From: Sminthopsis crassicaudata
Lineage: Eukaryota
Length of the DNA: 64,000 nucleotides
Reading direction: 5' to 3'
Assembly (NCBI RefSeq): GCF_048593235.1
Contig: NC_133619.1
Coordinates: 583,413,963 to 583,477,962, forward strand
The notes beneath the pieces are model-generated. The model saw nothing but the letters and a program-made list of their open reading frames with translations, was not told the DNA's origin and ran no database searches. This document shows, piece by piece, positions 1 to 33,328 of the stretch (the first letter of the stretch is position 1; each line of letters opens with the position of its first letter). Both the position numbers and the translations under genes were made by a program.

Positions 1-373
1 TCTAGAGAAAAGCAAAGTTTATTGTACATTCTCGCGAGAAGGGCGTCCCACTCTTCGAGTAGACTATCGAAGAGAGGAAGCGCCTCCTGTGGGCAGGACA
101 GCACCTTTAATCCCTAACGCAAAACGCCCCCTCCCACCACTGACCCTCATCCTCATTGGCTGAGAGTCTTACATTCTAAACGCGAGATCTACCCATGAAA
201 TTGAACTTGACCAATAAGTACATAGTTGCCCATATTTGGATGAAATAGGGAGATGTCATAGGAGGGGAAGGCAATGCCCTTCAGAGTCCTTCAGGCCTAC
301 TCGAACTCTGAAGTAGATGAAGCCTTACTCGATTTTCACAACTGTCTTGAAAGATCTCACCTCATCTCATTCA
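1..373 (-). mobile_element. ERV LTR family A, cut by window edge
   Basis: Near-identical to 24714-25101 (about 8 substitutions and 3 small indels). The minus strand starts TGAATGAG at 373 and has CCAAT, a GC box and AATAAA; CpGs are retained. It interrupts a MIR-like SINE that resumes at 374. Confidence 0.9.
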
Positions 374-1886: not shown

Positions 1887-2795
1887 TCAACGGATTTGCT
1901 GGGTCTTGACACTGTAGATCACAGGGTTCATTAAGGGTGGAAAGAGCACTGAGACTGTGCCCATAAGCACATGCACAACGGGAGAAGCATGGTGCCCAAA
2001 GCGGTGAACTATGGACAAGCCAAGTACAGGAACATAGAAGCACAACACAGCCAGGATGTGGGACACACATGTGTTAAGGGCTTTGAGTCTCTCCTTGGCA
2101 GAGGCAATGGAGAGCACAGTGCAGAGGATAATGGTGTAGGAGACCAGGATAAAGAGAACATCAGAGCCCATGGCCAACATGATAATGCACAGACCATAGA
2201 TGCTATTGAAGCGTGTGTCAGAGCAGGACAGCCGGATCATGTCCTGATGTAAGCAGTAAGCATGAGAGAGGGCCCCAGGACGGCAGTACTGGAAAGTGAA
2301 CAAGCGGAGAGAGGGGGCTGCTGTGATAGCAGCACTCCTCAAACCCAGCACTGCCCCAGCCAGTGCCACACGGGGGCCAGAGAGGATGGTGGAATAGCGC
2401 AGGGGGAAGCGAATGGCCACCAGTCGGTCCAGGGACATGGCAAACAGTACAGCAGATTCCATAAAGGAGAAGGAATGGAGGAAATGCTGCTGGAGAATAC
2501 AAGACACCAGCCCAATGGCCCGTGCATCAAACCACAGCACACCCAACACTGTGGGCAGAGTCGACATGCATAGACCCAAGTCTGTCACTGCCAGAATCGC
2601 CAGGAAGTAGTACATGGGCTGGTGCAGGGAGTTCTCAGTGCGCACCAGGTGGAGGATGGTGATGTTGCCCAGCACAGCCACTAGGTAGCCTGCAAAGATG
2701 GGCAGAGAGATCCAGCAGTGAGCCCACTCCAGACCTGGGAAACCAGTCAGCAAAAAGGTGGTAAAGCTGAAATTGGTCCTGGGCAGGTTAGGCAT
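1887..2795 (-). CDS. OR51AI2: Class I olfactory receptor, family 51, Or51ai2 (Olfr632/MOR2-1)-like; C-terminally truncated, possible pseudogene
   Basis: Motifs LHQPMYYFL, MSLDRLVAI, SHAYC, KALNTC and [42 protein letters not shown] and MGSDVLF match my recollection of mouse Olfr632. Start is set at ATG 2795 (MPNLPRTNFS, 302 aa) because the track's ATG 2873 lies in a predicted intron. The ORF ends KTQQIR-TGA. The symbol is recalled and less certain than the OR51 call. Confidence 0.9.
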   Translation of the reverse strand: MPNLPRTNFSFTTFLLTGFPGLEWAHCWISLPIFAGYLVAVLGNITILHLVRTENSLHQPMYYFLAILAVTDLGLCMSTLPTVLGVLWFDARAIGLVSCILQQHFLHSFSFMESAVLFAMSLDRLVAIRFPLRYSTILSGPRVALAGAVLGLRSAAITAAPSLRLFTFQYCRPGALSHAYCLHQDMIRLSCSDTRFNSIYGLCIIMLAMGSDVLFILVSYTIILCTVLSIASAKERLKALNTCVSHILAVLCFYVPVLGLSIVHRFGHHASPVVHVLMGTVSVLFPPLMNPVIYSVKTQQIR

Positions 2796-2809
2796 CCTTG
2801 GAAATTCTT

Positions 2810-2894
2810 CTGAGACAAATTGGTATTGAGTAGTTAGTAAAACAAAAATTTTAAAAAGGCCAATCTCCCCCATTAACCCTACACCATCACTTAC
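2810..2894 (-). promoter_or_regulatory. 85-nt 5' UTR intron just upstream of the OR coding exon
   Basis: Donor AAG|GTAAGT at 2894, branch point TACTAAC at 2839-2833, acceptor ttgtctcAG at 2811-2810, 14 nt before the ATG. Confidence 0.75.
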
Positions 2895-14583: not shown

Positions 14584-15537
14584 TCAGTGCCTAGAACTCC
14601 ATTTTAGTTGTACCATGAGTTTAATAATCGCCCGGCGTATCTCCTTGGTCTTGATGCTATAGATGATAGGGTTGAGCATAGGAGGCACAAATAGGTAGAT
14701 GTTAGCCATGAGGAGGTGAACAACAGGTGAGGCATGTTTTCCAAAACGGTGTACTAAAGACAGCCCCACCATGGGAACAAAGAAGATCAACACAGCACTG
14801 AGATGTGAGGTGCATGTCTGAAATGCCCGTAGTTGCTCTTCTCGGGAAGCCAGACCCATCACAGTGTGCAGAATGAGTGCATAAGACAAAGCTATGAAAA
14901 CCAAGTCAAGAACCACAGTGAATACCACCAATGTCAGCCCATACAGATTGTTGAAGGTAGTGTCTGCACAGGCCAGACGGATCACATCTTGGTGTAGACA
15001 AAAAGAGTGAGAGAGGATTCTCCGCCCACAGTATGGAAATGTTTGCAGGAGGAGGACAATGGGGAGTAGAGCCACAGGACCCCTGAGAATAATGGCAAGT
15101 CCAGCCCGAGTCACTCTCTGACCTGTGACAATGACTGAATAGCGCAAGGGACGACAGATGGCCACAAAACGGTCAAATGACATGACAAGGAGCACAGCAG
15201 ACTCCATGAAGGAGAAGGAATGGATACAAAACATCTGGAACTGGCAGGTACCAAAATAGATGTCCTGGGAACCAAACCAGAAGGTGACTAGTGTGGTAGG
15301 CAGTGTGGATACTGAGAGGCCTAGGTCATTTAGGGCCAGCAGAGAGAGGAGGTAGTACATGGGTGTATGAAGTTGAGTGTTTGTCTTAATGATGAATAGG
15401 ATGAAGCAGTTGCCCAAGATGGCCAGCAGATACATAAGGCAGAAAGGGATAAGGATCCAATGTTGAATGGCCTCCAAACCAGGGAAACCAATGAGATAGA
15501 AAGTAGGGCGGAAATGGGTAACATTGATTGGGGACAT
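14584..15537 (-). CDS. OR51M1: Class I olfactory receptor 51M1, intact, 317 aa
   Basis: [51 protein letters not shown] and [10 protein letters not shown] match recalled human OR51M1. True ATG at 15537; splice acceptors at 15583 and 15571; AATAAA at 14456-14451. Confidence 0.95.
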
Positions 15538-17089
15538 AGAATGAGGAATGAAGGAAATTGGGCTTCTTTTCTGGAAAGCAAGCTGAAAAGAAAAACAAAT
15601 TTCTCATTTATTAGCAAGAGGCATATCAGAAACAGAACTCATTTTTTGTCTTCATTAACATTTAGATTACTATCCTCCTTAACATACATTTCACCACAGT
15701 CATTACCATCTGCAAGGAAAATGCCATCTGACCACTTATTTCCTTCATCTCCATCCCTTCTTGTAATATTCAGGCTAGCTTTCTGGAGGTCCTTCAGAGG
15801 GACCTTGGTCTCAGCAGGATAGACACCATGAGAATGGTCAGGAATAAAGTCTAGAATCTTTATTCTGGCCCAGTCTTGATCTTAGTGGAGAAGAACAGGA
15901 GGCAAGAGAACCACCAGGAAGCTGGTCAAAAATAGAATGTCCCATTTCCATTCTTTTTCAGCCCTTAAATACCCTATTACAATTGCATCATTACAGCCCA
16001 CTAATTATGTGTGAACTAGAGGACCATTACATCACCATGCTAAGTACTAAATGTATGTATACTAGAGAACCATCATCTCATCAGTTCCACTGAGTTAACA
16101 CCTTGTAAGTATCCTTGTTTCCAGTATATTTCTCCAGAGTTCTGGCCCTCTACACCTTCTTTCTCTATGATTTGTGACTTGTTTGAGTGTTACAAGATTC
16201 ATCACTAATTCACTGGATACTAATAACAGTAAATAAAATATTGTTGCTATATATATGGGAATGAATTTGAACTATGTTATTTTTTGTAGACAGAGTTTCA
16301 AAGTCTAACTTAAAACTTCATAAATAGATTCAATTTCATCTTGAATTTGTACAAAAAAAAAAAAGTAAAATCATTTGGATGATAGTTAGGTGACAGGGAA
16401 TTGGGGATGAGAAATGCGATCAGGAAGAAAAGAACACATTTTCCCATCTTACTCTTTCTTCCCCTCCCCCCCAAATCATCTTTGATCAATCTAAAAAGGC
16501 TGAATCTCCCCGTCTCACAGTGTACAATTCATTTTGGGCTTAGGAAATTCTGCTAAGATCTTATACTCTAATGTTTGGTCTTTTTTATGTTGACACAAAA
16601 ATTATAGTGTGTCTCAGTGCTTTTTAAACATTACCACTCACAATCCCTTTTCGCCCCATAAATTTTTACTTGACTCCATATATGTAGGCATATAAAACAT
16701 ATATGCAAATCAAATATTCACTGATAATAAATCATAATTTTGTGACTTTCACATTGTTATAGCATGCCATATGGGGTTATGAATCATACTTTAAGAAGCT
16801 GGAGACTATTTACTAATAACTGTATGTACCTATTTATTGTATATATTGTGTCCCCCAATTAGAATGTTGCCTCCTTAAGGGCAGAAAAAGTTCTTGCTTC
16901 TTTTATTCCGAGCACTGAATATAGTGCTTGGCACATACAATGTGCTTATTAAATATTCCTTGATTGAGGAGTTAATTATGCTGATAGAGTGCTTTGAGAT
17001 TTGTCTTTGTTTACACTGCTTCTTCAAACTTTTTTTTATTCTTTTTAAAAATTCTCACAGATTAGCCTTCTTCTACCTTCTCAATTAAA

Positions 17090-18120
17090 GAGTTTGCCTG
17101 ATATTTTACTGAACAAAATTATACACTTCCCTCATAATCCCCTTTTCTACCATGAACCTCATTTTACATCATTCAGATGCTTTTGCAACAATGTCCTCAT
17201 ACATTCTACTATCACAGGAGGAGCCTGCATTTCTCCTTGCTAAGACACAAGAATCTGCATGTAATCCCTTGCCAAACCAACTTCTCCAGCAGCTTGCTCC
17301 CTCTATTATCCCCCTCTTCACTTACTTGTCTTCAACATCTCTGAATGGGATTGATTGGATGAAGCTTTTTCAGTTTGAGACTAGGCCTTCCTCACATGAT
17401 CCCTATTCCAGAGCTGGGAAACTAGGCCTTGGAGTCAGGGTCCAAGAAGGACCCTGGAAAGTCACATGATCTCTAAAAGCTCAGACCCTAAGTTACAGGA
17501 AGTAACTTAACCTGTGAGAAGCAGACAACATTAGTGATCATTGATCAAAGATGATTGTGTACTTTTAGTCTATCTAATGAAAAGACTTGAGTCTTTTCCT
17601 ATTTAACTAGGTGTTCTACTTCTGGTTGATCAGGTTCCAGGAGTACATGATGGGAGTTGGGATGGCTCCCAGGTATGTGTCTAGGCCTCTCCCTTCCGGG
17701 ACTAAATAAATGCTTTCTCTTTGTACCTGAAGATGTCTCTGATTAGTTAATTTGGGAAAGGGGTTTAGCATCCATCCAACCCATCTCTCTATGAACTACT
17801 TCCCTACTTCTCACAAACATGCTCTTGTCTCTCTGCCTTCCTTTCAAACAAACCTCATTTGATTTTTTTAATCCCATTAACTATTGTCCCATTTCTCCCT
17901 TTCCTTTTGTGGTTAAACTCCTTGAGAAGACCATCTATAATGCCTTCACTTCCTTTCATTCTTTTTAATTCTCTACAATCTGGTTTTCAACTCTTAACAA
18001 TTAGCTCAAACTTTTCTCTCCAAAGTTACTAATGAGCTCTTAATTGCCAAATTCAATGTCCTTTTCCCAATCCCCATCTTTCTATATCCTCTGTAGTCTT
18101 TGAAACTCATATAATCATTT
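17090..18120 (+). mobile_element. L2 ORF2 relic interrupted by an LTR
   Basis: ctccaaagttactaatgagctcttaattgccaaattc reads SKVTNELLIAK; the L2 sequence resumes after 17783. Confidence 0.8.
17342..17783 (+). mobile_element. Solo LTR family C
   Basis: TG...CA ends with a 4-bp TSD TCTC (17338-17341, 17784-17787); TATTTAA and AATAAA; homologous to 21362-21960. Confidence 0.85.
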
Positions 18121-19159: not shown

Positions 19160-19370
19160 CACTCACAGGCTGCTCTCCAACTGACCAAGTTTGTGTCCTA
19201 CTGGCTCTTAGTGCAAGATGAAATCAGCAGTCAGACAACAGAAAGTAGAGGTATTGAGAGGGCATGTTCCATTGCCTGTTCTGGGTATATTTATCCTCCT
19301 CCTTTTTCTAACTCCAGGGAAAACTCAGGCCTCAGGTGCTGGAAGCTGAGTACAGAGTCCCAGAGATAAC
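19160..19370 (-). promoter_or_regulatory. Candidate proximal promoter and first exon of OR51M1
   Basis: O/E-like TCCCAGAGA (19358-19366) and TCCAGGGA (19313-19320), TAAATATA at 19293-19286, donor CCT|GTGAGT at 19166; 3.6 kb upstream of the CDS. Confidence 0.45.
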
Positions 19371-21361: not shown

Positions 21362-21960
21362 TCTCCAAGTCTAGGGGCAAAGTTTATTGTAATTGTAATG
21401 TCAATTGAAGCAGGCTAAGTTTCAAAATGATTTAGCAAAGAGCCAGGAGAAAGAAGATAAATTTATAGAACAAATTTAGAGAGACCAGAACTTCAGATTT
21501 CTTATGAGTGAGACCAGGGGAAATGTTCTCAAAAAGTCTATGAAATGGAATAGGTCAGACTAGGCCTAAGTCACATGATCCCTAATCCTAGGGGTCTGCC
21601 AAACCAGAAGATTAGGCCTTGGGCTCAGGCTGAAGGAAGTCACATGATCTCTAGGCCTAGAAGTCTCTAAAAGTTAGACCCTAGGGCAGCTTTAGGAAGT
21701 GATGTGACCCAAGGGAATCAGACAACTTTGGTGATCATTGGCTAATAAGAGTTACTTCCTCTTTAGTCCATCCAATGAAAAGACTTGGGTCTTTTGCTAT
21801 TTAACTTTCTGCTTGTCAGGTCAGGTTCATGCTGAGCTGAGATGCTTCCCAGGTGTGCTTGGGCCTCTTCCTGCTGGGACTAAATAAATGCTTTCTCTTT
21901 TTACCTGAAGATGTCTCTGGTTAATTAATTTGGGGAAGGGTGTCTAGCACCCATCCCACA
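21362..21960 (+). mobile_element. LTR family C; 5' end lies in the gap
   Basis: CCAAT, TATTTAA and AATAAA; ends CCCACA at 21960 with no PBS following; shares gtcacatgatctct and ggactaaataaatgctttctc with 17342-17783. Confidence 0.85.
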
Positions 21961-22380: not shown

Positions 22381-22565
22381 TCTTTTATAAGGAGAATTTA
22401 GCCTCAAGGTTTTATCTTGGATTTCTGATTGGATTACCTTTAGAACAGGGGACCAAAGAACTAAAATGACCCTCTATTTTCAGAACGTTCTTATTGCTTG
22501 CCAATGAGATTAATTTTTATTAATATCTTTGCTAACCACACCTAACATTGAAAAAAGCCTCATCA
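22381..22565 (-). mobile_element. Truncated LTR (U3 only), family B-related
   Basis: Starts TGATGAGG right after a PPT; CCAAT at 22432-22428; TATAAAA at 22389-22383. The start and TATA context match LTRs at 41961 and 49208. It stops just after the TATA box. Confidence 0.7.
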
Positions 22566-22579
22566 TTTCCCCCTCTTTT
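22566..22579 (-). other. Retroviral polypurine tract
   Basis: AAAAGAGGGGGAAA immediately before TGATG. Confidence 0.75.
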
Positions 22580-24638
22580 AATTTTTAATTTCCTTGCTCT
22601 GAAACAAAGTTTGTGCCTCTTTGGAATCTGGCATGTTTTGGAGGCAGGGGGCTTTCTGGTTCTTAAGTTTTATGAAATTTGGGTCAGTTACTTGCGAACA
22701 TTGAAGTGTAAAGTTTAAAAATATATACATATATATTAAAGACGGGACAGGAAAGATTGATTTGTAAAAGTAATTAATAGTTTAAATGGAGCTATGATAT
22801 ATTGGGTCGGAAAGCATGGTGGTGTGGGGGAAGGGTGACCACGTGGAGAGGTCCCTCCTCCCATTAAGTATAGTGGGGTTTTTTTTGTTTGTTTGTAATA
22901 ACTGCACCTCCTTGCTGATTTAGATATTAATTATTTCTACTGTTTAAAGGAACAGCCTACATTTATATGGTGTTAATAACTGAATGTTTTATTTTTATTT
23001 TTCAAGTCTATAACTGTTCTAAGGAGTTGGAACTGAAGTTTTCTGAAAGCAAGTTATTCAATGTTTATTTACATGCATGATAGTCTCCTTTTTTAAAGAT
23101 TATTTTAATCTGATCTGATAATTTGATAGGGTTATTTGCAAAAATTTTAATCCTTTTCAGAATGAAGAGAGTATTAATGTTAACTCTGAAAGATCTGAAA
23201 GTTTCTTTTCTGTGGAAACGGGATGGACAACATGAGATTTTGAATTTTTCTTGTATTGAGTATTTTGAAGGCAAAATAATCTGTAATGTTAAACCTAGAA
23301 CCATCTACTTTATGAAAGAGACTGTATAATCTGTGAACTTCCTAGGATGAATCTTTACTGTGATTCTTGAGAACTAGATTCACCTGAAGCCTTGATTAAT
23401 GATAATTGCTGTAGGAGATAAAATCTTTTGGGACTGAAGCTAATATTTACTTGGAGTTTTGAATTCAGGTCGTTAAACTCCACCATCTGGAGGTGGGATG
23501 GTTAAAATTAGGACAGCTACCTGAAGTAAAACTGCCTTAAATCATGCCCCTGGTTTTTCCTCTTATGTTTGTAATCAGAGCCAAGTGGGCAGTGAGCCGT
23601 ACAGTGCTAGGACCGCTCCCACTTTGCCTTTCTTTTGGAGACAAAGCTGGCAATCTCTGGAACCCCAATCCTAGACTCCTGACTATAGATCTATATTCAG
23701 ATGTTTTAACTTAAAATCCCAAACACAGCTTTAAATTCCCAATAATATAAAACTACTTTGCTATCATATTTAAAACAATGAACTTCACTAAATAGTGGTT
23801 TCTTTCCCCCGGCCTGCATGGCCCTGCTGCAGTCAGGACATGTGGGAGGAAAAGGAAGGAAGCCACCATCTTCACTGGCTCAATCCCACATACTTCCCCG
23901 TGTACAGGGTTTCTGATCCCAAATGGGATCTACTAACAGGTATTTCTGGCCAGCTGAAACGGCCCCTGCTTCAAAAGACATATTTCTCTTCCCCACCCGA
24001 AGGCCCCTGGAAGGGATAATGGAATTAAATCCTCTCAGGTCCTTCCCTTCAGGTACCATTTAATCCTTTTGGCACCACCAGTCTGCAACAAAACAACAAT
24101 ACCTTATCCGCTTTTTCTTGCTTTTTATTTTTCCTCATATTTTGGCAGTTTGTTCCAATTACTTAATTTATCTCCCAAGGGACTATCTACCGGTATTTTC
24201 TGATATTTTTCTCATTTCTCTCCACAAGGGCTGGCTGGGACTAGGCCACACCCATTGAATTTGGAAGGAGTTTAACAGACTCCTAAACGCCCAAACACGC
24301 TAACCGTCACCGGTTAACTCAGTCACCCAGGAAGGCCTAGCTCTCTTCCTGTCTACCGTCTACAGCCCCCTCCAGAACCTATAACTAGACTCAAGGGGCT
24401 TCACAGGATGCTTACCTCTGGGTTGCTGCGCAGCAAATTTCTTGACTGATCTGTCCTCCACCAACCGGTTGGGATTTTCACCGCGGAGTTTCCGTTGCTT
24501 TTCTCTGAGTTTCTCCACTTCGGGTCCACTCTACGTCAGGGAGCAAGGAGAAGCCCCTGGAAGCTGGCGGGCTGCCTAAATCAAGGCAGGGCGCCTCCCC
24601 GCCAACACCCAGGAGTTCACTTACTCACTGAGTAAAGG

Positions 24639-24655
24639 ATCCGGACTAGCCCCCA
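24639..24655 (-). other. Primer-binding site for tRNA-Pro
   Basis: TGGGGGCTAGTCCGGAT versus canonical TGGGGGCTCGTCCGGGAT (1 substitution, 1 deletion), adjacent to the LTR end. Confidence 0.85.
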
Positions 24656-24660
24656 AACTG

Positions 24661-25101
24661 TGTGGTGCGGAAATGGTGAGGGGTCACCATTTAATAAAAA
24701 AGCTGGAGAGAGCTCTAGAGAAAAGCAAAGTTTATTGTACATTCTCGCGAGAAGGGCGTCCCAACCCTTCGAGTAGACTATCGAAGAGAGGAAGCACCTT
24801 CTGTGGGCAGGACAGCACCTTTAATCCCTAACGCAAAACGCCCCCTCCCACCACTGACCCTCATCCTCATTGGCTGAGAGTCTTACATTCTAACCGCGAG
24901 ATCTACCCATGAAATTGAACTTGACCAATAAGTACATAGTTGCCCATATTTGGATGAAATAGGGAGATGATATCATAGGAGGGGAAGGCAATGTCCTTTG
25001 CTCGAACTTCAGAGTCCTTCAGGCCTACTGGAACTCTGAAGTGGATGAAGCCTTACTCGATTTTCACAACTGTCCTGAAAGATCTCACCTCATCTCATTC
25101 A
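24661..25101 (-). mobile_element. Complete ERV LTR family A
   Basis: TGAATG...CCACA; CCAAT at 24873-24869, GC box, GATTAAAG, AATAAA at 24736-24731. The 3' end could be 24659 instead of 24661. Confidence 0.92.
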
Positions 25102-25490
25102 AACTGGAACAAAATCAAGAAGACTTGGGGCAGAACTATTGTCTTGATACAATCAGAGAAGATCTGAAGAAAGGTCTGGCATTGGGATTAAACTGTCTAA
25201 AGTCCAAATACCCTTAAACTAGCTCAGCAGAATCATCAAGTGAACTGTTTACAAGAAAGTAAAGAAAAAAATGGACATTCATGAATATAATTTCTTCTAC
25301 TAATACAAATATATACTTTCTTGATCTAGTAATTTGTTGTTATATATTTTGAATCATCCCTGATGTTCTGCTGGGCACGATGTGCTCTTTTGCTTGCTTT
25401 ATTTTGTTTTGTATTTGTATTTTTTTTACTCTTTTTTCAAATAAAATAAATTGGAAAAAAACATTTCCAAAAAAAAAAAAAAAAAAAAGG
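25102..25490 (+). mobile_element. LINE-type 3' end with poly(A) tail
   Basis: Ends AATAAA...A-run; interior matches my recollection of a dasyurid LINE 3' UTR. Family uncertain. Confidence 0.55.
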
Positions 25491-25690: not shown

Positions 25691-25725
25691 ACTGCATTTC
25701 AAAGAGTCGCCAGCAGGTGGCAAGA
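25691..25725 (+). promoter_or_regulatory. CTCF site with upstream module
   Basis: Core TCGCCAGCAGGTGGCAAGA (25707-25725) fits CCASYAGRKGGCR; ACTGCATTTC (25691-25700) lies 6 bp upstream. Confidence 0.7.
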
Positions 25726-27027
25726 GAAAGCAGAAGATGGCAGATGGCTTAACAGAATGCGACTTAACAGAAATCTCACCAGGTGAGAATAGAGGAAGAG
25801 AAGCAGGTGACCATAGCAAGGACAATAGCACAACATTGAACATGATTAATGGTATCACTGGACCAACAGATAACAATAGCGACACAAATAGCAACATCAG
25901 ACAAGGAAAGAGATTTTTGTATGGATACCACCCTATTGTTATTTGCCAATGCTATTCCAGTTCTTCTGAGCAACTTAAATTTAGACATTAGTGAACCCCC
26001 TTCAGTCACTTAAAATCTTGTTTCCTCAGTTTCCTCAAATGTAAATGGAGATAATAAGAACACTCATCTTGCAGAGTTGTTCTGTGAAGCAAATGAGACA
26101 AAAATTGTAGAACACTTAGTACAGTGCCTGGTATGTAGTAAGCACTATATAAATATTATTATTATTATGTCATCTATTTTAAGTATATGTTGGCCTCAGA
26201 GTTTGAATATAGATATTAAAATCAAGACTTCCAAGAAAAGAGAAGGCCAAGACCATGCAAACAGGAGGTTCATGACAATGTTTCCTATATGAATGAATGG
26301 ATCCACTAGATGACACAGCTCTGTTCCCAAGACACCCTTAGGTAGAAGCTCTATCTCTGTTCTGGGTACTCAGAACATTCATTTGGTCTAAAAATGTGAT
26401 CATTAATGACACCATAGTGTCAGAGCTGTGTTTTCAAAGCCACAGATAGTGATAAGAATACTCCTAAAACATTATGGAGGCATCATAAGTAGCACCAGAA
26501 CCAACTCTTAATAAGACCTAGTACTGCTAAAATATTTATGACCAGCGGTGTCCCATGTTTTTAGAGTGAATTAGCATCAATCATATGAATTTACTGGGTT
26601 GTGAGATCATAGATTTAGAACCAGAAACAATTATATCAAACTTTTCATTATCCAAAGAGGTTAAGGTATATAGAACAAGAAGCAGAGCTGGAACTCGAAA
26701 TAGTTTTTCTGCTTCCAAATCCAATGTTCTATCTACTAGAGACATGAACATCCATATACAAATATCCTATTATCTTATTCTACTTTTTGTAATGACTCTT
26801 TTTCTCCTTTTCCCCTTCCCTTCAATTCCCTAATTTCTGTACTCAGTTATATTTAATCTCTGGTGTTTTTTAAGAACTCTTTAGCCTCATCAATTTCCAG
26901 AGCTGGTTCATGTTGTATTCCCATTGGAGTTGTGACAGCTGATGTGGCTCTATCAGGCTGGAGGGTGGAGAGAAAGAAAATGAGGCAGTAAGGACAACTC
27001 ACAAAACAGGATAAATAGACCACTTAC

Positions 27028-27082
27028 CAGCCTTATGTCTCAGAACTGACCTCATTGGCGAGGCAGGTAGGTTCTTGTAAGT
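27028..27082 (-). promoter_or_regulatory. Candidate 55-nt non-coding exon
   Basis: Acceptor cttccccctccttcctactctcctAG (27084-27083), branch-like TTTAC 26 nt upstream, donor CTG|GTAAGT at 27027. Confidence 0.55.
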
Positions 27083-27329
27083 CTAGGAGAGTAGGAAGGA
27101 GGGGGAAGTAAACTTTGAGAGGTTTAGGGGGAGTTCTGTACCCAAATGAGGTAGGGTCTGTTAATTCCAGGCAAGTACCCCATGTTTGCAGCTATACAGC
27201 CCTCAGGACAAGGGGATAATGGTTATGCTCTTAGATTTTCAGAGCTTCTTGAGAAAGAATAACTTCCTAGTGAATTACTAGAGAGGCAAATTTGAGATTT
27301 GAGGGATTTTTGCTCTTGTACCAGAATTG

Positions 27330-28380
27330 AGATGGCTGGTCAATCAGTAATGTAGACTTATTAAGGGCCTACTATATTCCAGGCATTGAGCTAAGTGCTA
27401 ACGATACAAAGAATAGCAAAAAACAAACTTCGTTTTCAAGGAGATCACAATACAATGAGGGAGACAACACAATGTAATTACAAAAAAAAAAATGTATATG
27501 GACCATAAATTTTGGGGAAAGCAGTAAAGTTAAGGAAAACTAGGAAAGACTTCTTGCAAAAAGTTGGCATTTAAAGGAAGTCAGAGAAGCAAGAAATCAG
27601 ACATAAGGAAGAAGAGTATTCCAGGAATGGGAACAACCAGTAAAATACATTGAGAGTCATGAAATGAAATATCATGTGAAAGGAATGGCAAGGAAGCCAA
27701 TGTCATTACAGCCCAGAATATATTGAGAAGAGTAAGGTGTAAGAAGATTGAAAAAGGTAAGAAGCAGCCAAGTTATGAAGAGCTCTAAAAGGCAAAGAAT
27801 TTTACATTTGGCACTATGGGAACCATTAGTTTGGAGTGAAGAAGAGCGATGTGATACAATTAAACTTATGTTTTAGGAAACCCAGTTTTCCAACTGAGTG
27901 AAGAATGGATTGGAGTAGGGACAGACAAGGCAGAAAGACCAAGAATCTATTGCAAATTACTACTAAAATAGTAATCTATCATAATATCCTGCTGACATAA
28001 AGTAATGAGGACCTGCACCAACACAATGTCAGCATCAGTTGAGAGAAAGGAGCATTTATGACTGATAATATGAAGATTAAAATGACATAACGACAACTAA
28101 TTGAATAAAAGGGTGAGAGGGGGTAAGAATGAAAAGAGTGAAAGATCATGAGCCTAGATAACTGGAAGAATTGTGATACTCTGGACTGTAAAAGAGAAGG
28201 TAGAATAAGGGGAGGGTTGCCTCGTGGACTGGGAGTGGTCAGATAAGGAGAGAGAACCAAGAGAACACACTATCACAAAAACATAGAGAAAAAGAAACTA
28301 TCAAAGAGAAGAGGGTAATCAGTAGTGTCATATGCTCCAGAAAGGTCAAGAAGAATAAAGACTGAGGCAAGTCATTGGAG
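27330..28380 (-). mobile_element. L2 3' region
   Basis: ttattaagggcctactatattccaggcattgagctaagtgct followed by a long purine-rich L2 body. Confidence 0.75.
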
Positions 28381-28410
28381 CACAGGCATCAAATAAACAC
28401 AGAACAATTA

Positions 28411-28743
28411 AATAAAGGAAATTAAATGTGCAAATCCTGAGGTGAAGAGAATCCAGAAAGAGCAGTGTTCACCTCCAAAGATGGATCTCTTTATTGATGA
28501 AGTTTTGTAGACAGAGGGAGATCAGAGAGTTCTTCCAGTCCTCATCATATCACAACAACAGGTGGTCTGCATATAGGACCAGTCCTACATATGAGTCACT
28601 GAACCATTGGCTAAAAAAGGAACCTCTTTTCCTAGAGCCATCTCTCTGGAAAGAACTCTTGGGAACTGCTGACTGCTTAGAATAAAGGTAGGGAATGAAA
28701 TGATTCAATGTGTCCCCTTCCAGTCTTTCTTCCAATCCTGGAT
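28411..28743 (-). repeat. Left arm of inverted duplication (promoter/first-exon-like)
   Basis: Reverse complement aligns to 30190-30524 with about 17 substitutions and 3 small indels. Confidence 0.95.
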
Positions 28744-30189
28744 ACTTTCCATCTTCTCATACAAACAGTTTTTTGCTCCTTCTAAACCTTTTTTCTATAT
28801 TCACCTCTTACGGGAAGCCTTCCCAGTTTAATTCAGTCTAATTCCAAATGGCTAAGTTATCACAGCCTCCCTACAGGCACATATAATAAAATGTGAATGT
28901 GTCCGTGTTCTTCTGAGCTAATATGGTATATTTTAATGAGCTAAATATGAAATAAAATCAAAGCACCACTCCCTGTTATGCTACCAAGGAGAATTCCTGA
29001 TAGGCTTTTAACCTTTTTGTTTGATTGTCATGGACACCCTTTGACAATTTGATGAAGTCTATGAACCCCTTCTAGAGCAATATAGAATAATAAATAAATA
29101 AAAATAGAAATAATAATAAATATAACATAATAGAAGAATTCAAAGGAAACTAATTATATAGAAATACAATTATCTAACTAACTATAGAGGTATCTATATG
29201 AGTAGGTAGAGTTTAGGAAAGAATGTGGGGATAAGGAGAAAGGTGAGAAAGAATCACCATGAAGAAAATTGAAAGATATGAAGAAAAAAGATTGAAGTTA
29301 GTTTTGGGAAAGGAAGAAAAAACAGGTTTTGTTGTTATTGAGACATATTCAATCATATCCAATTTTTCATGACCCTTTTGGGGTTTTCTTGGCAAAAGTA
29401 TTAAAGTGGTTTGCCACTGATTCAAACAGGGTCAAGTGACTTGTTTAGAGTCATATGGCTAGTATTTGAGTCTGGATTTGAATTGGGGTTTCTTGACTCC
29501 AAGCCTGGAGCTCTACCCACTGCAGCTACCCCTAAGGAATGGGTTTCTAAGCACAAAAGCTCTTTAGGAAGGAGGTTTAATATATGTCTCTCTCTTTACC
29601 TTTGAGAGCCCCTGGAAAAAGCCCAGGTATAAATTCTCCAAAGCATGGAAGGTACTTTTGATGCTTTTCAGATGCTTGTTCTTAGAAATTTCATCCTTCA
29701 GTTTTCAGGTTTAATCTAAGATTGCCTTCTTGTGGCACTGTGAGCCTGTGTTCTTCTGCCCATAAAATTAAGTTTCATTCCTATTCCTTGTAACAGGAAC
29801 ATCAAGAGAATATGAAGATGGCATAGCAAAAAATCATAGCATAATACAGAAAGTAACTGTCTGAGGTGGAATTTGAATTCAGGCTCTCCTGATTCTAAGG
29901 CTACTGTTCACTGCTGGTCCTATCCATAATACTAAACTGCCACTCATTCAGATCAAATTTTAACTTGAAACATAGGTTACCCTCAAAGCTCAAAAAAAAA
30001 AAAAAAAAAAAAAGATACTCTTTTCCATTTAGCTGAACATGAGCCTTCTTGATCTTTGTTTTCTCCTTTTTAACACTGAGGAACACTGAGTTCTTAGAGT
30101 CACTGAACCTATCTATACAAATACCTGCAGTCACAAGGAATGGATGTAGGTGGTGGACAAAGCAGAAGGGAGCTCAGCCTACTGGGTGA

Positions 30190-30524
30190 ATCCAGGATTG
30201 GAAGAAAGGCTGGAAGGGGACACATGAATCACTTCATTCCCTACTTTTATTCTAAGCAGTCAGCAGTTCCCAAGAGTTCTTTCCAGAGAGATGGCTCTCT
30301 AGGAAAAGAGGTTCCTTTTTTAGCCAATGGTTCAGTGACTCATATAAAGGGCTGGTCCTATATGCAGATGACCTGTTGTTGTGATATGATGAGGACTGGG
30401 AAGGACTCTCTGATCTCCCTCTGTTTGCAAATCTCCACCAATAAAGAGATCCATCTTTGGAGGTAAACACTGCTCTTTCTGGGTTCTCTTCACCCCAGGA
30501 TTTGCACATTTAATTTCCTTTATT
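30190..30524 (+). promoter_or_regulatory. Right arm of inverted duplication; candidate promoter/first exon of the OR at 32384
   Basis: O/E-like TCCCAAGAG and TTCCAGAGA, CCAAT, TGACTCA, TATAAA at 30343-30348, donor GAG|GTAAAC at 30463. The duplication is certain; the promoter role is inferred. Confidence 0.6.
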
Positions 30525-31307
30525 ATTATTATTATACCAAAGGAATTTTGGGAAGTGTTAGAGAAAAGAAGAGAGAAGCCCTGCCTGCCTAGAACAGAAA
30601 ATCCAAGACTCACACAAATTCCTCACACTGTAAGTTCTCCCTTCCCTTTATGGAATGCTTATCTATCTCACTCTATTTTCTTGTGGGTAATAATTGTCAA
30701 TGCAGTTGATTCCAGCTATTCACCCTATTTTTACTTCGTCAGGAAGAGGAGATAGATTATAAGAGATTACCCATGAATTCCTTATTCAGTGAAACAGCCT
30801 TTACTCTTGAGGAATTCTCTATCTATGAGAGGAAACTAGGAGAATTGGTCCCAATACTTGGTGAATCTAAGTCTATGTAGAAATTATATATTTTTAAAAA
30901 TGCAGTTGCATCCTCTTTAAAGTATTTTAAAATGTACTTTCTGGGAAAATTATTTTTTTCTAAAATATAAACAAATTTTGGAATTAGCTAGAGTTTTTCA
31001 AAGCTTTTCTAGATGGTTTTGTGAAAAGAGTTCTGAGTCTAGAGTGACAAAGATCTGAGTTCAAATACAGTCTCAGATATTTATTAATTGTAGGCAAAAG
31101 AGAAGGAAATGATAAACCACTTAGGTTTCTTTGCCAGGAAAATTCCATGGACAGGATGGGGTCAGGACACAACTGAGTGACTGAACCACAACAAAAGGAA
31201 TGAATTCTATGGAAATTTAGAATTGCCTAGGAGGAAATGGGGAAACTGGGGGATTTCTCCTTTAAAAGATAAAATCTGGTCTTTCATAGGATCAGAAAAA
31301 TTCTTCT

Positions 31308-31435
31308 NNNNNNNNNNNNNNNNNNNNNNNNNNNNNNNNNNNNNNNNNNNNNNNNNNNNNNNNNNNNNNNNNNNNNNNNNNNNNNNNNNNNNNNNNNNNN
31401 NNNNNNNNNNNNNNNNNNNNNNNNNNNNNNNNNNN
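31308..31435. other. Assembly gap (128 N)
   Basis: Run of N. Confidence 1.
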
Positions 31436-32383
31436 CAAACTCAGAATAATCAGTATTGCTAATGACCATTTAAAAAGGCAACAAGCCTTTCTTTTATCCA
31501 TTTAAATTAAGTCATATGGATCAGAAAGCCACTAACAGAAAATTAATTCACCAATGAATATTTTAGAAATGATGGGCTAAATGAAGCATTTGAGGTTTTA
31601 AGTGGAAATAAGGAGGTAACAATGTTTTTTTTGAGACCCAGACAGATCAAAAGGTGAATTGAAATTTCCTGAAAGTGTGATAGAAGATAGTCTGATACTA
31701 AGATCTTATTTCAATAATTCAAAAGACTGGAGATTTCATCAGTGTAGCTATTTCCTCTATTGATGAAAACCCAGATATGCCTTCATGAGTTATTCTAGAC
31801 AAAAAACACCTCTCAGTGAACTTGCTTTCACTAAATTAAGTTGTCAAAAGACAGAAATAATGTGTGTCCTTAGGCAAACATTCTATATCTTCTTAATTTG
31901 GGAAGCCCTGTTTCCATTTCACTGACACAGTCTTTGAGAACTAGGGGTCATGAATCAGTATGAGTTTTATATTTAGTCCTGATTGCCTAAAACAAAAGTC
32001 AGCTTAAAAATGATTGATAAATGGTTTAATAAGGAAGTATTAAAATGTGCCTAAGTATTTATATTTCTCTAAATCACATACAAAATTATACTTTGCCTTA
32101 AATCACTAAATATATAGGACTATTACAGATTGGGTCATATATATGTGTGTACATATATACATATATATGCTTTGTAAAAATTTGAATAGAAAAATAAATA
32201 ATTGGCTTAAGTGTACTTTTTGATTCACTTCTTGGGAAAGTTCAACTAGCTGAGCCATGATGTTAAGCTCTAGTACCTCTATTATTTAATTGACTCTTCC
32301 ATGACTTACATGCACAATGCTTAAATGTGTTTATCAAACCCCAGATTCCTTCCTGAACACTTCTCAAAGACCTGGCTTTGGGG

Positions 32384-33328
32384 ATGATATTCAACAGTAG
32401 TTACTTCACACCAGAGACCTTCTTCCTCACAGGCCTCCCTGGACTAGAGGCTGTCTACCCCTGGCTCGCCATCCCCTTTTGCTCCATGTACTTTGTGGCC
32501 CTTGTTGGCAATAGCCTGATTCTAGTAGTGATCCATGGCAATCCATCCCTCCATCAGCCTATGTATTTGTTCCTGGGTATGCTGGCCTTCTCTGAGCTTG
32601 GAGTCTCCTCCTCCACACTACCCACTGTGATGAGCATCTTTCTCTTTAACGCCAATGAGATCAGCTTCAATGCCTGCTTGTTCCAGATGTTCTCCATCCA
32701 CTCCTTCTCTATCATGGAGTCAGCTGTCTTGTTGGCCATGTCTGTAGATCGATTTATAGCCATCTACAGCCCACTGCGCTATACAGCCATCTTAACACTG
32801 CCCCGCATTGCCCGCACAGGAGTTGCTATTGCACTGAAGAGTGTGGTGATCATGTTTCCACTGCCATTCCTCCTGAAGCGCCTGCCCTTCTGTGGTCACA
32901 ATACCCTATCCCATTCCTACTGCCTCCATTCAGACCTGATCCAGTTGCCCTGTGGGAATACACGTCCCAATAGCATTCTTGGGCTATGTATTGTCACTTC
33001 CACTTTTGGACTGGACTCATTGCTGATTGTCATTTCTTATGTTCTGATCCTCCATACGGTGCTGGGCATTGCCTCGGGGGAAGGTAGGCGCAAGGCTCTC
33101 AACACATGTGTGTCACACATATGTGCTGTGCTTGTATACTACGTGCCCATGATTGGGGTAGCTATGGTCCATCGCTTTGTGAAACATGCTGCTCCTGCTG
33201 TCCGTCTCCTCCTGGCCAATGTCTATCTCCTTGTGCCCCCTGTGGTCAACCCAATTGTCTACAGCATCAAGACTAAGCAGATCCGTCATGGACTGGTCCA
33301 GATTCTGCTCCAGAAAAAATGTTTATGA
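32384..33328 (+). CDS. Class I olfactory receptor, OR51J-like, intact, 314 aa
   Basis: LHQPMYLFL, MSVDRFIAI, SHSYC, KALNTC, PPVVNPIVYSIKT. The track start 32378 is TTG; the first ATG is 32384 (MIFNSS). Confidence 0.95.
   Translation: MIFNSSYFTPETFFLTGLPGLEAVYPWLAIPFCSMYFVALVGNSLILVVIHGNPSLHQPMYLFLGMLAFSELGVSSSTLPTVMSIFLFNANEISFNACLFQMFSIHSFSIMESAVLLAMSVDRFIAIYSPLRYTAILTLPRIARTGVAIALKSVVIMFPLPFLLKRLPFCGHNTLSHSYCLHSDLIQLPCGNTRPNSILGLCIVTSTFGLDSLLIVISYVLILHTVLGIASGEGRRKALNTCVSHICAVLVYYVPMIGVAMVHRFVKHAAPAVRLLLANVYLLVPPVVNPIVYSIKTKQIRHGLVQILLQKKCL

Follow-up and report, generated by a model that had tools for sequence, protein, structure and literature searches.

We found that a promoter-like element of about 335 bp in an OR gene cluster of Sminthopsis crassicaudata has very probably been copied a single time, in inverted orientation and in this lineage only, to a site 1.45 kb away. 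The window, by which we mean the whole 64,000-nucleotide stretch of DNA that was analysed, is part of the class I OR cluster; the two arms of the inverted pair are about 156 and 183 kb distant from beta-like globin genes. The left arm (28411-28743, minus strand) is the older source element, has an OR-promoter-like anatomy and faces OR51M1; the right arm (30190-30524, plus strand) is the derived inverted copy. With moderate confidence we favour a fuller reading, in which the source is likely an OR promoter and the copy would probably give the OR51J-clade gene to its right no more than a minor extra start site.

The arms align over 336 columns, 315 of them identical (93.75%, E 2e-142), and differ by 17 substitutions (14 transitions and 3 transversions) and 3 indels. 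This agrees with the first-pass annotation, which had described two outward-pointing arms of about 335 bp and about 94% identity at the same positions. In the spacer between them (28744-30189, plus strand) there are remnants of SINEs as well as two candidate 5' exons belonging to the OR51J-clade gene. The promoter and splice motifs named earlier were all found where they had been placed: CCAAT, the AP-1-like heptamer TGACTCA and TATAAAG within 30324-30349 of the right arm (plus strand, starting at 30324, 30336 and 30343); CCAAT, TGACTCA and TATGTAG within 28585-28610 of the left arm (minus strand, starting at 28610, 28598 and 28591); AATAAA at 30440 in the right arm and 28495 in the left; and the candidate splice donors GAG/GTAAAC (30463-30468, plus strand, right arm) and GAG/GTGAAC (28467-28472, minus strand, left arm), each matching the consensus at 6 of 9 positions. 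A second candidate donor, matching at 7 of 9 positions, lies outside the right arm at 30630. The O/E-like sites that had been claimed held up in part. Each arm carries two exact matches to YYYCARRRR, a rule taken from the legend of Fig. 6 of PMC5638857, at 30268-30289 in the right arm (plus strand, starts 30268 and 30281) and at 28643-28664 in the left (minus strand, at 28656 and 28643), whereas neither arm contains an O/E site by a stricter palindromic TCCCNNGGGA-type rule.

The differences between the arms are unevenly distributed. The roughly 100 bp upstream of the TATA position had been said to differ by a 2-nt indel only, and indeed 30246-30345 has zero substitutions and that single indel. 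Three substitutions fall in the 153 bp upstream of the TATA position versus 14 in the 180 bp after it (Fisher P=0.022), and the longest clean run between the arms has a post hoc P of 0.034. This is the sole hint of function and speaks against a merely minor role of the copy, but it is weak and post hoc: constraint could explain it, and so could gene conversion, which is expected to leave such a pattern in inverted repeats lying close together.

The direction of the event comes from a comparison with related organisms. We compared window 26400-31300 with contigs from four of them (X10, X12, X15 and X18), using one run per organism out of 11 runs available for 8 other organisms. Single contigs carry the left arm with both flanks in three of the four, X12, X15 (27427-29073) and X18 (27352-29073), and X10 covers the left arm only in part; the right arm is missing in all four. 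The contigs of X12 and X15 pass from 30146 to 30538 with 47 letters between, and those of X10 and X18 from 30162 to 30538 with 24 letters between. Compared by eye, these 24 letters match window 30166-30189 at 17 of 24 positions, so the ancestral sequence reaches the arm and resumes just past it. Because the left arm is spanned in three of the four relatives and the right arm is absent from all of them, the right arm is the lineage-specific new copy and the left arm is the original. The reverse order of events, with the right arm as original and the left as its decayed copy, is overturned by the empty right site. The whole inserted segment probably runs from 30187 to 30533 (plus strand), and in it 3 filler bases precede the arm and a run of (ATT)3 follows it; neither a target-site duplication nor poly(A) was seen at the insertion when the junction was compared by eye with the empty site of the relatives.

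The K2P distance between the arms (0.053) is smaller than that between the window and the relatives over the left region (0.073-0.077), which places the copying near or after the split from the relatives. This date is loose, and the 17 substitutions could allow an age equal to that of the split. Among the 40 of 511 rows listed in the comparison of the window with the relatives, no difference fell inside the arm.

The most likely pathway is a template switch in DNA repair, of the MMBIR/FoSTeS type or as a polymerase-theta-type templated insertion. Copying would have started from a broken or stalled 3' end near 30186, about 335 nt would have been copied from the opposite strand of the nearby left element, and the copied strand would have rejoined the original sequence near 30534, leaving behind the 3 filler bases, the (ATT)3 run and, to the left of the junction, clustered mismatches. 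We infer the pathway because clear microhomology is not visible at the junctions: at most 2-3 nt can be seen there by eye, among filler, slippage and about 5% of later divergence. The 15 nt left of the junction hold 5 mismatches against a background of about 7% (P=0.003, post hoc and unpolarised), and this cluster fits error-prone repair. A search within 24-34 kb gave no clear template for the 24 nt left of the junction (best match 13/16), and secondary structure at the insertion point was considered and set aside (z -0.36). Several features of a local templated insertion are seen here: the template nearby, the empty site, the inverted copy and the uninverted intervening DNA. We also observed that the insertion point falls in a near-O/E site of the ancestral sequence (30166-30189), about 95 nt upstream of the donor at 30630. 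A second element of regulatory or exon-like character, also old, may have received the copy at this place (30166-30189 and 30538-30630).

What the source was is judged from its anatomy and position, and on these the left arm is likely an OR promoter with its first exon, facing OR51M1. It holds, in order, two O/E-like sites 13 nt apart, CCAAT, the AP-1-like heptamer, the TATA position and a GT donor 120 nt on. The mammalian OR proximal promoters described in PMC3247239 have a comparable layout, with O/E sites no farther than 200 bp from the start, sometimes a TATA-like box, and a short non-coding first exon; in the arms the O/E part of this resemblance depends on the YYYCARRRR rule. According to the same source, TATA was called in 39% of 314 mouse OR promoters, and 78% carry an O/E site that is conserved and lies within 200 bp (PMC3247239). 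The arms differ from the promoters of PMC3247239 in that they have no homeodomain site, in that CCAAT is nowhere mentioned in that text, and in that their start is only predicted. Indeed, no TAATKR homeodomain site lies inside either arm, an absence that is less binding here because Lhx2 is described as dispensable for most class I ORs.

The two exact O/E-like sites stand within 22 bp, and only 0.5% of 40-bp intervals in the 264 kb around the window hold two. A composite of two O/E-like sites, TATA and donor gave 11 matches in the 264 kb, forming 8 loci, one of which is the right arm on which the rule had been built; 20 shuffles gave 1-7 matches (mean 3.4). Of the seven other loci, three precede an intact OR gene in the right sense, at a distance of 4-11 kb. 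The composite pattern is enriched and far from specific. About 85.5-85.8 kb right of the window end such composites occur on both strands within about 320 bp, possibly a bidirectional OR promoter. An nhmmer search detected no paralogous promoter in the 264 kb, and none was found upstream of 16 nearby OR genes; three weak matches, two of them in front of OR51Q-like genes and the third in front of another OR gene, were rejected as not significant, their scores being reached in 40, 4 and 13 of 60 shuffles.

The TATA position is not conserved at the source, as it is altered in the left arm and 2 nt short in two relatives. The left arm had earlier been said to have changed from TATAAAG to TATGTAG; the arms do differ in this way, and the direction of change is not established, two relatives being without 2 nt there. 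The ancestral form was probably TATATAG, which is one step from all three forms, and from this it follows that the right arm may have gained a better TATA box rather than the left arm having lost one.

An unlikely alternative that nevertheless carries real weight keeps the same insertion and denies that the source was an OR promoter: the motifs would be there by chance, or belong to some other element, and the copy would be inert. Matches to YYYCARRRR occur at 2.6 per kb, 6% of 150-bp intervals hold two, and shuffled sequence yields the composite at 3.4 per 264 kb; the missing homeodomain site, the TATA position that is not conserved in the relatives, the beta-like globin genes about 156 and 183 kb away and a CTCF-like motif at 25710 point the same way. 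Against this, the order and spacing of the O/E pair, TATA position and donor match those of OR promoters (PMC3247239), and the OR gene in front of the element has, in its human orthologue, a pair of upstream exons. An erythroid element in particular is disfavoured by the lack of WGATAR inside the arm and by TGACTCA, which is not an NF-E2/MARE match. A counterpart of the hypersensitive sites upstream of beta-globin is likewise not favoured, as the arm has no GATA or MARE. The CTCF-core-like motif (25710-25723, plus strand) has one mismatch to the CTCF consensus, lies beside a modelled exon at 25737-25782 and is one of 12 such matches in the 264 kb. In eutherians, CTCF-bound sites upstream of the beta-globin locus are described as lying among these OR genes.

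To the left, the gene at 14584-15582 (minus strand) has a candidate acceptor at 15582 and an intact 317-aa ORF (15537-14584) that matches marsupial OR51M1 at 93-94% and eutherian OR51M1 at about 80%. It is the OR51M1 orthologue, and the left arm faces OR51M1 as had been claimed. A nearer candidate promoter or second non-coding exon of this gene lies at 19166-19366 (minus strand), with two O/E-like sites, an AT-rich box, a CCT/GTGAGT donor (7/9) and a pyrimidine tract with AG near 19205. In human OR51M1 the ATG is reported to be preceded by two non-coding exons of 106 bp each, at distances of 5.6 and 4.0 kb (PMC7055050). A two-exon leader of this kind would fit a path from the left arm through the 19.2-kb element to the coding exon; judged by its motifs, the 19.2-19.4-kb element could itself be the OR51M1 promoter. 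A transcript from the left arm would cross 9 kb with an ERV-like insertion and, between 28470 and 21300, at least 8 sense AATAAA sites. The insertion (22560-25250, minus strand) is internally deleted, has an LTR, a primer-binding-site-like motif and AATAAA at 24736, and lies in the same sense as a putative left-arm transcript; its LTR is 94% identical to window 1-373.

Two older LTR-like elements (17378-17780 and 21557-21959) also lie upstream of OR51M1. The N-terminal extension of the opossum OR51M1 model (P0259) was considered as a match to the left arm and rejected: its best matches are antisense OR coding ends. The match covers the first 25 residues and falls on the antisense strand at the 3' ends of OR coding sequences, so that the extension is probably an annotation artefact. 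Elsewhere in the cluster, the OR51-family gene at 1887-2873 (minus strand) has a near-identical recent duplicate 12.2 kb left of the window, and the window copy of the pair stops 13 codons earlier. About 4.5-5.4 kb right of the window lies an intronless, open 327-aa ORF, tRNA 2'-O-methyltransferase-like and presumably FTSJ1-like, which is a probable retrocopy inside the OR cluster.

To the right, the receptor gene at 32370-33328 (plus strand) has an acceptor at 32370 and an intact 314-aa ORF from 32384. The ORF (32384-33328) matches most proteins named OR51J1 at 68-71% and a separate eutherian group at 74-83%, and by its sequence the gene is an OR51J-clade paralogue, not OR51J1 itself. As had been claimed, the right arm faces a receptor from an OR51 subfamily other than that of OR51M1. 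In the public S. crassicaudata model P0121 the gene has an upstream coding exon (25737-25782, plus strand); this exon together with 32370 onward encodes the first 45 residues of P0121 exactly. The modelled intron between them (25783-32369) holds both arms, and the left arm lies antisense inside it. Should the P0121 exon be correct and the left arm be a promoter, OR51M1 and the OR51J-clade gene would overlap antisense at their 5' ends by about 2.8 kb, an arrangement that would set up transcriptional interference between two OR genes.

Two further candidate exons lie in the spacer (29645-29852, plus strand), one ending at 29651 and the other at 29797-29852. They match the N-terminal part of the OR51J-clade protein as publicly modelled for Antechinus (tblastn E 2e-7) with a score of 36.7, versus 22.7 and 25.8 in two shuffles, and O/E-like sites at 29599 and 29609 stand just upstream. 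By both models the right arm falls within a 5' intron of this gene and has the same orientation as the gene; its motifs stand 1.9 kb ahead of the acceptor at 32370. Since the gene already had candidate starts, the right arm is an addition and not a replacement. With EBF (O/E) sites, TATA box and donor now in sense upstream, a non-coding first exon of about 90 nt could splice to 32370. This putative exon has two out-of-frame upstream ATGs; uORFs are described as common in OR leaders (PMC7055050). The copy is likely to act at most as a minor extra start site, and the OR51J-clade gene would keep its older starts.

The first-pass annotation had proposed that the two genes may share the same regulatory input. 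So far neither this nor a transcription start in either arm is supported. Further candidate 5' ends exist for both genes, near 19.2-19.4 kb for OR51M1 and, for the OR51J-clade gene, within the spacer and at 25.7 kb. Activity of both arms would still mean two distinct promoters alike in sequence, from which co-expression in one neuron does not follow, and two such promoters would not by themselves break the one-receptor rule.

We think it improbable, though worth stating, that the left arm is the working OR51M1 promoter and that its copy has become the main start of the OR51J-clade gene, so that the two genes use near-identical promoters. The copy does lie in sense with an intact O/E pair, TATAAAG and a GT donor, its 100-bp core has no substitution (P about 0.02-0.03), and about 300 bp of promoter are described as sufficient for OR-like expression in mouse transgenes (PMC12547500). 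However, upstream exons could be mapped for two public protein models, and neither model takes them from the arm, though non-coding exons are invisible in this kind of model, and the arm-difference statistics are post hoc and equally given by gene conversion. We are just as doubtful that an OR51M1 promoter and first exon were moved onto another subfamily with both copies active and under selection. If this were true, OR promoters could move between subfamilies independently, rewiring genes without duplication of coding sequence, and the locus would be a natural swap experiment on whether the proximal promoter alone sets choice frequency and zone in a class I cluster. If both arms start transcripts, species with and without the copy would test how a proximal promoter of about 300 bp sets OR choice frequency.

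The preferred reading, an inverted copy of an older left arm, also has to be weighed against other histories of the pair. It is very improbable that the pair is the scar of a spacer inversion at staggered breaks, that it was duplicated long ago and the relatives then lost the right arm, or that it is a misassembly. Inversions have happened here: human OR51B6, OR51M1 and OR51J1 are shown on one strand (PMC7055050), whereas OR51M1 is divergent from its OR51J-clade neighbours in the window, which points to an older inversion in one lineage. In the relatives, however, the spacer is collinear with both flanks and has the same orientation, which shows that it was not inverted and rules out a spacer inversion. 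Loss of the right arm would need a deletion matching the homology limits almost exactly; the missing segment and these limits agree within 3-9 nt, a coincidence that a random deletion would not produce. The right-arm junctions do rest on one individual, which leaves room for misassembly, but a 6% difference made up of 17 substitutions, biased 14:3 towards transitions, is what evolution and not assembly error produces.

A genome-wide DNA search with the arm, also suggested in the first-pass annotation, gave 2 candidates in the 3.24-Gb genome, which are the two arms, and no dispersed copies. As a control, an LTR-like stretch of the window gave 2,076 candidates, with matches down to 73-85% identity; very old copies of the arm below about 70% identity could escape such a search. 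Two motif searches, allowing 2 and 3 mismatches, returned both arms and one chance match within a SINE, and nhmmer found no third copy within the 264 kb around the window. The module is thus a single local copy and not an LTR, as had been argued, and an LTR family of ordinary size is ruled out by these counts. That the arms are two degraded solo LTRs is scarcely credible: CCAAT, TATA and AATAAA do stand in LTR order, but the genome-wide and motif searches, the empty site of the relatives without target-site duplication, and the failure to find a dispersed family in the genome or TG...CA termini with a target-site duplication at the arms all speak against it. The earlier argument from missing TG and CA ends does not apply, since the arm ends of a new copy are repair junctions. 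The arm was also rejected as a decayed OR coding fragment, as it gave no match with DNA or protein profiles of 15 local OR genes, and an NCBIfam scan gave no match.

Templated insertion is a known class of mutation, of which the dunnart case is a cleanly polarised example that carries a promoter-like module. The MMBIR signature is described as an insertion near and inverted to its template, seen among germline variants too (PMC8421209). The dunnart copy resembles the MMB-TI events of that study (PMC8421209) in being an inverted near-template insertion in the germline with untidy junctions and no target-site duplication. It differs in scale, as templates were sought there within 100 bp (PMC8421209) and here 335 bp came from 1.45 kb away, and in its junctions, which are without the clear flanking microhomology that belongs to the MMB-TI signature (PMC8421209). 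Among the reports that we found in the open-access literature, none described an OR promoter copied at this small scale, and inverted, in front of a neighbouring OR gene. Related ways of sharing 5' sequence are known. Some OR genes have common 5' UTR exons, OR51E2 and OR51C1P for example, with seven such loci each in human and mouse (PMC7055050). There, as may be the case in the dunnart, an OR gene can take its first exon from a class I OR gene next to it, but the exon-sharing genes use one exon by read-through splicing on one strand (PMC7055050), whereas in the dunnart the exon-like module itself was copied and inverted. In primates, LRRC37 promoters were copied from BPTF and DND1 (PMC3371713). 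There too, a promoter segment of one gene was duplicated to the 5' region of another in one lineage (PMC3371713). The LRRC37 cases arose by segmental duplication from unrelated donor genes, with activity demonstrated by RACE and reporters (PMC3371713); the dunnart case is a local 335-bp copy between paralogous OR subfamilies, with putative promoter activity.
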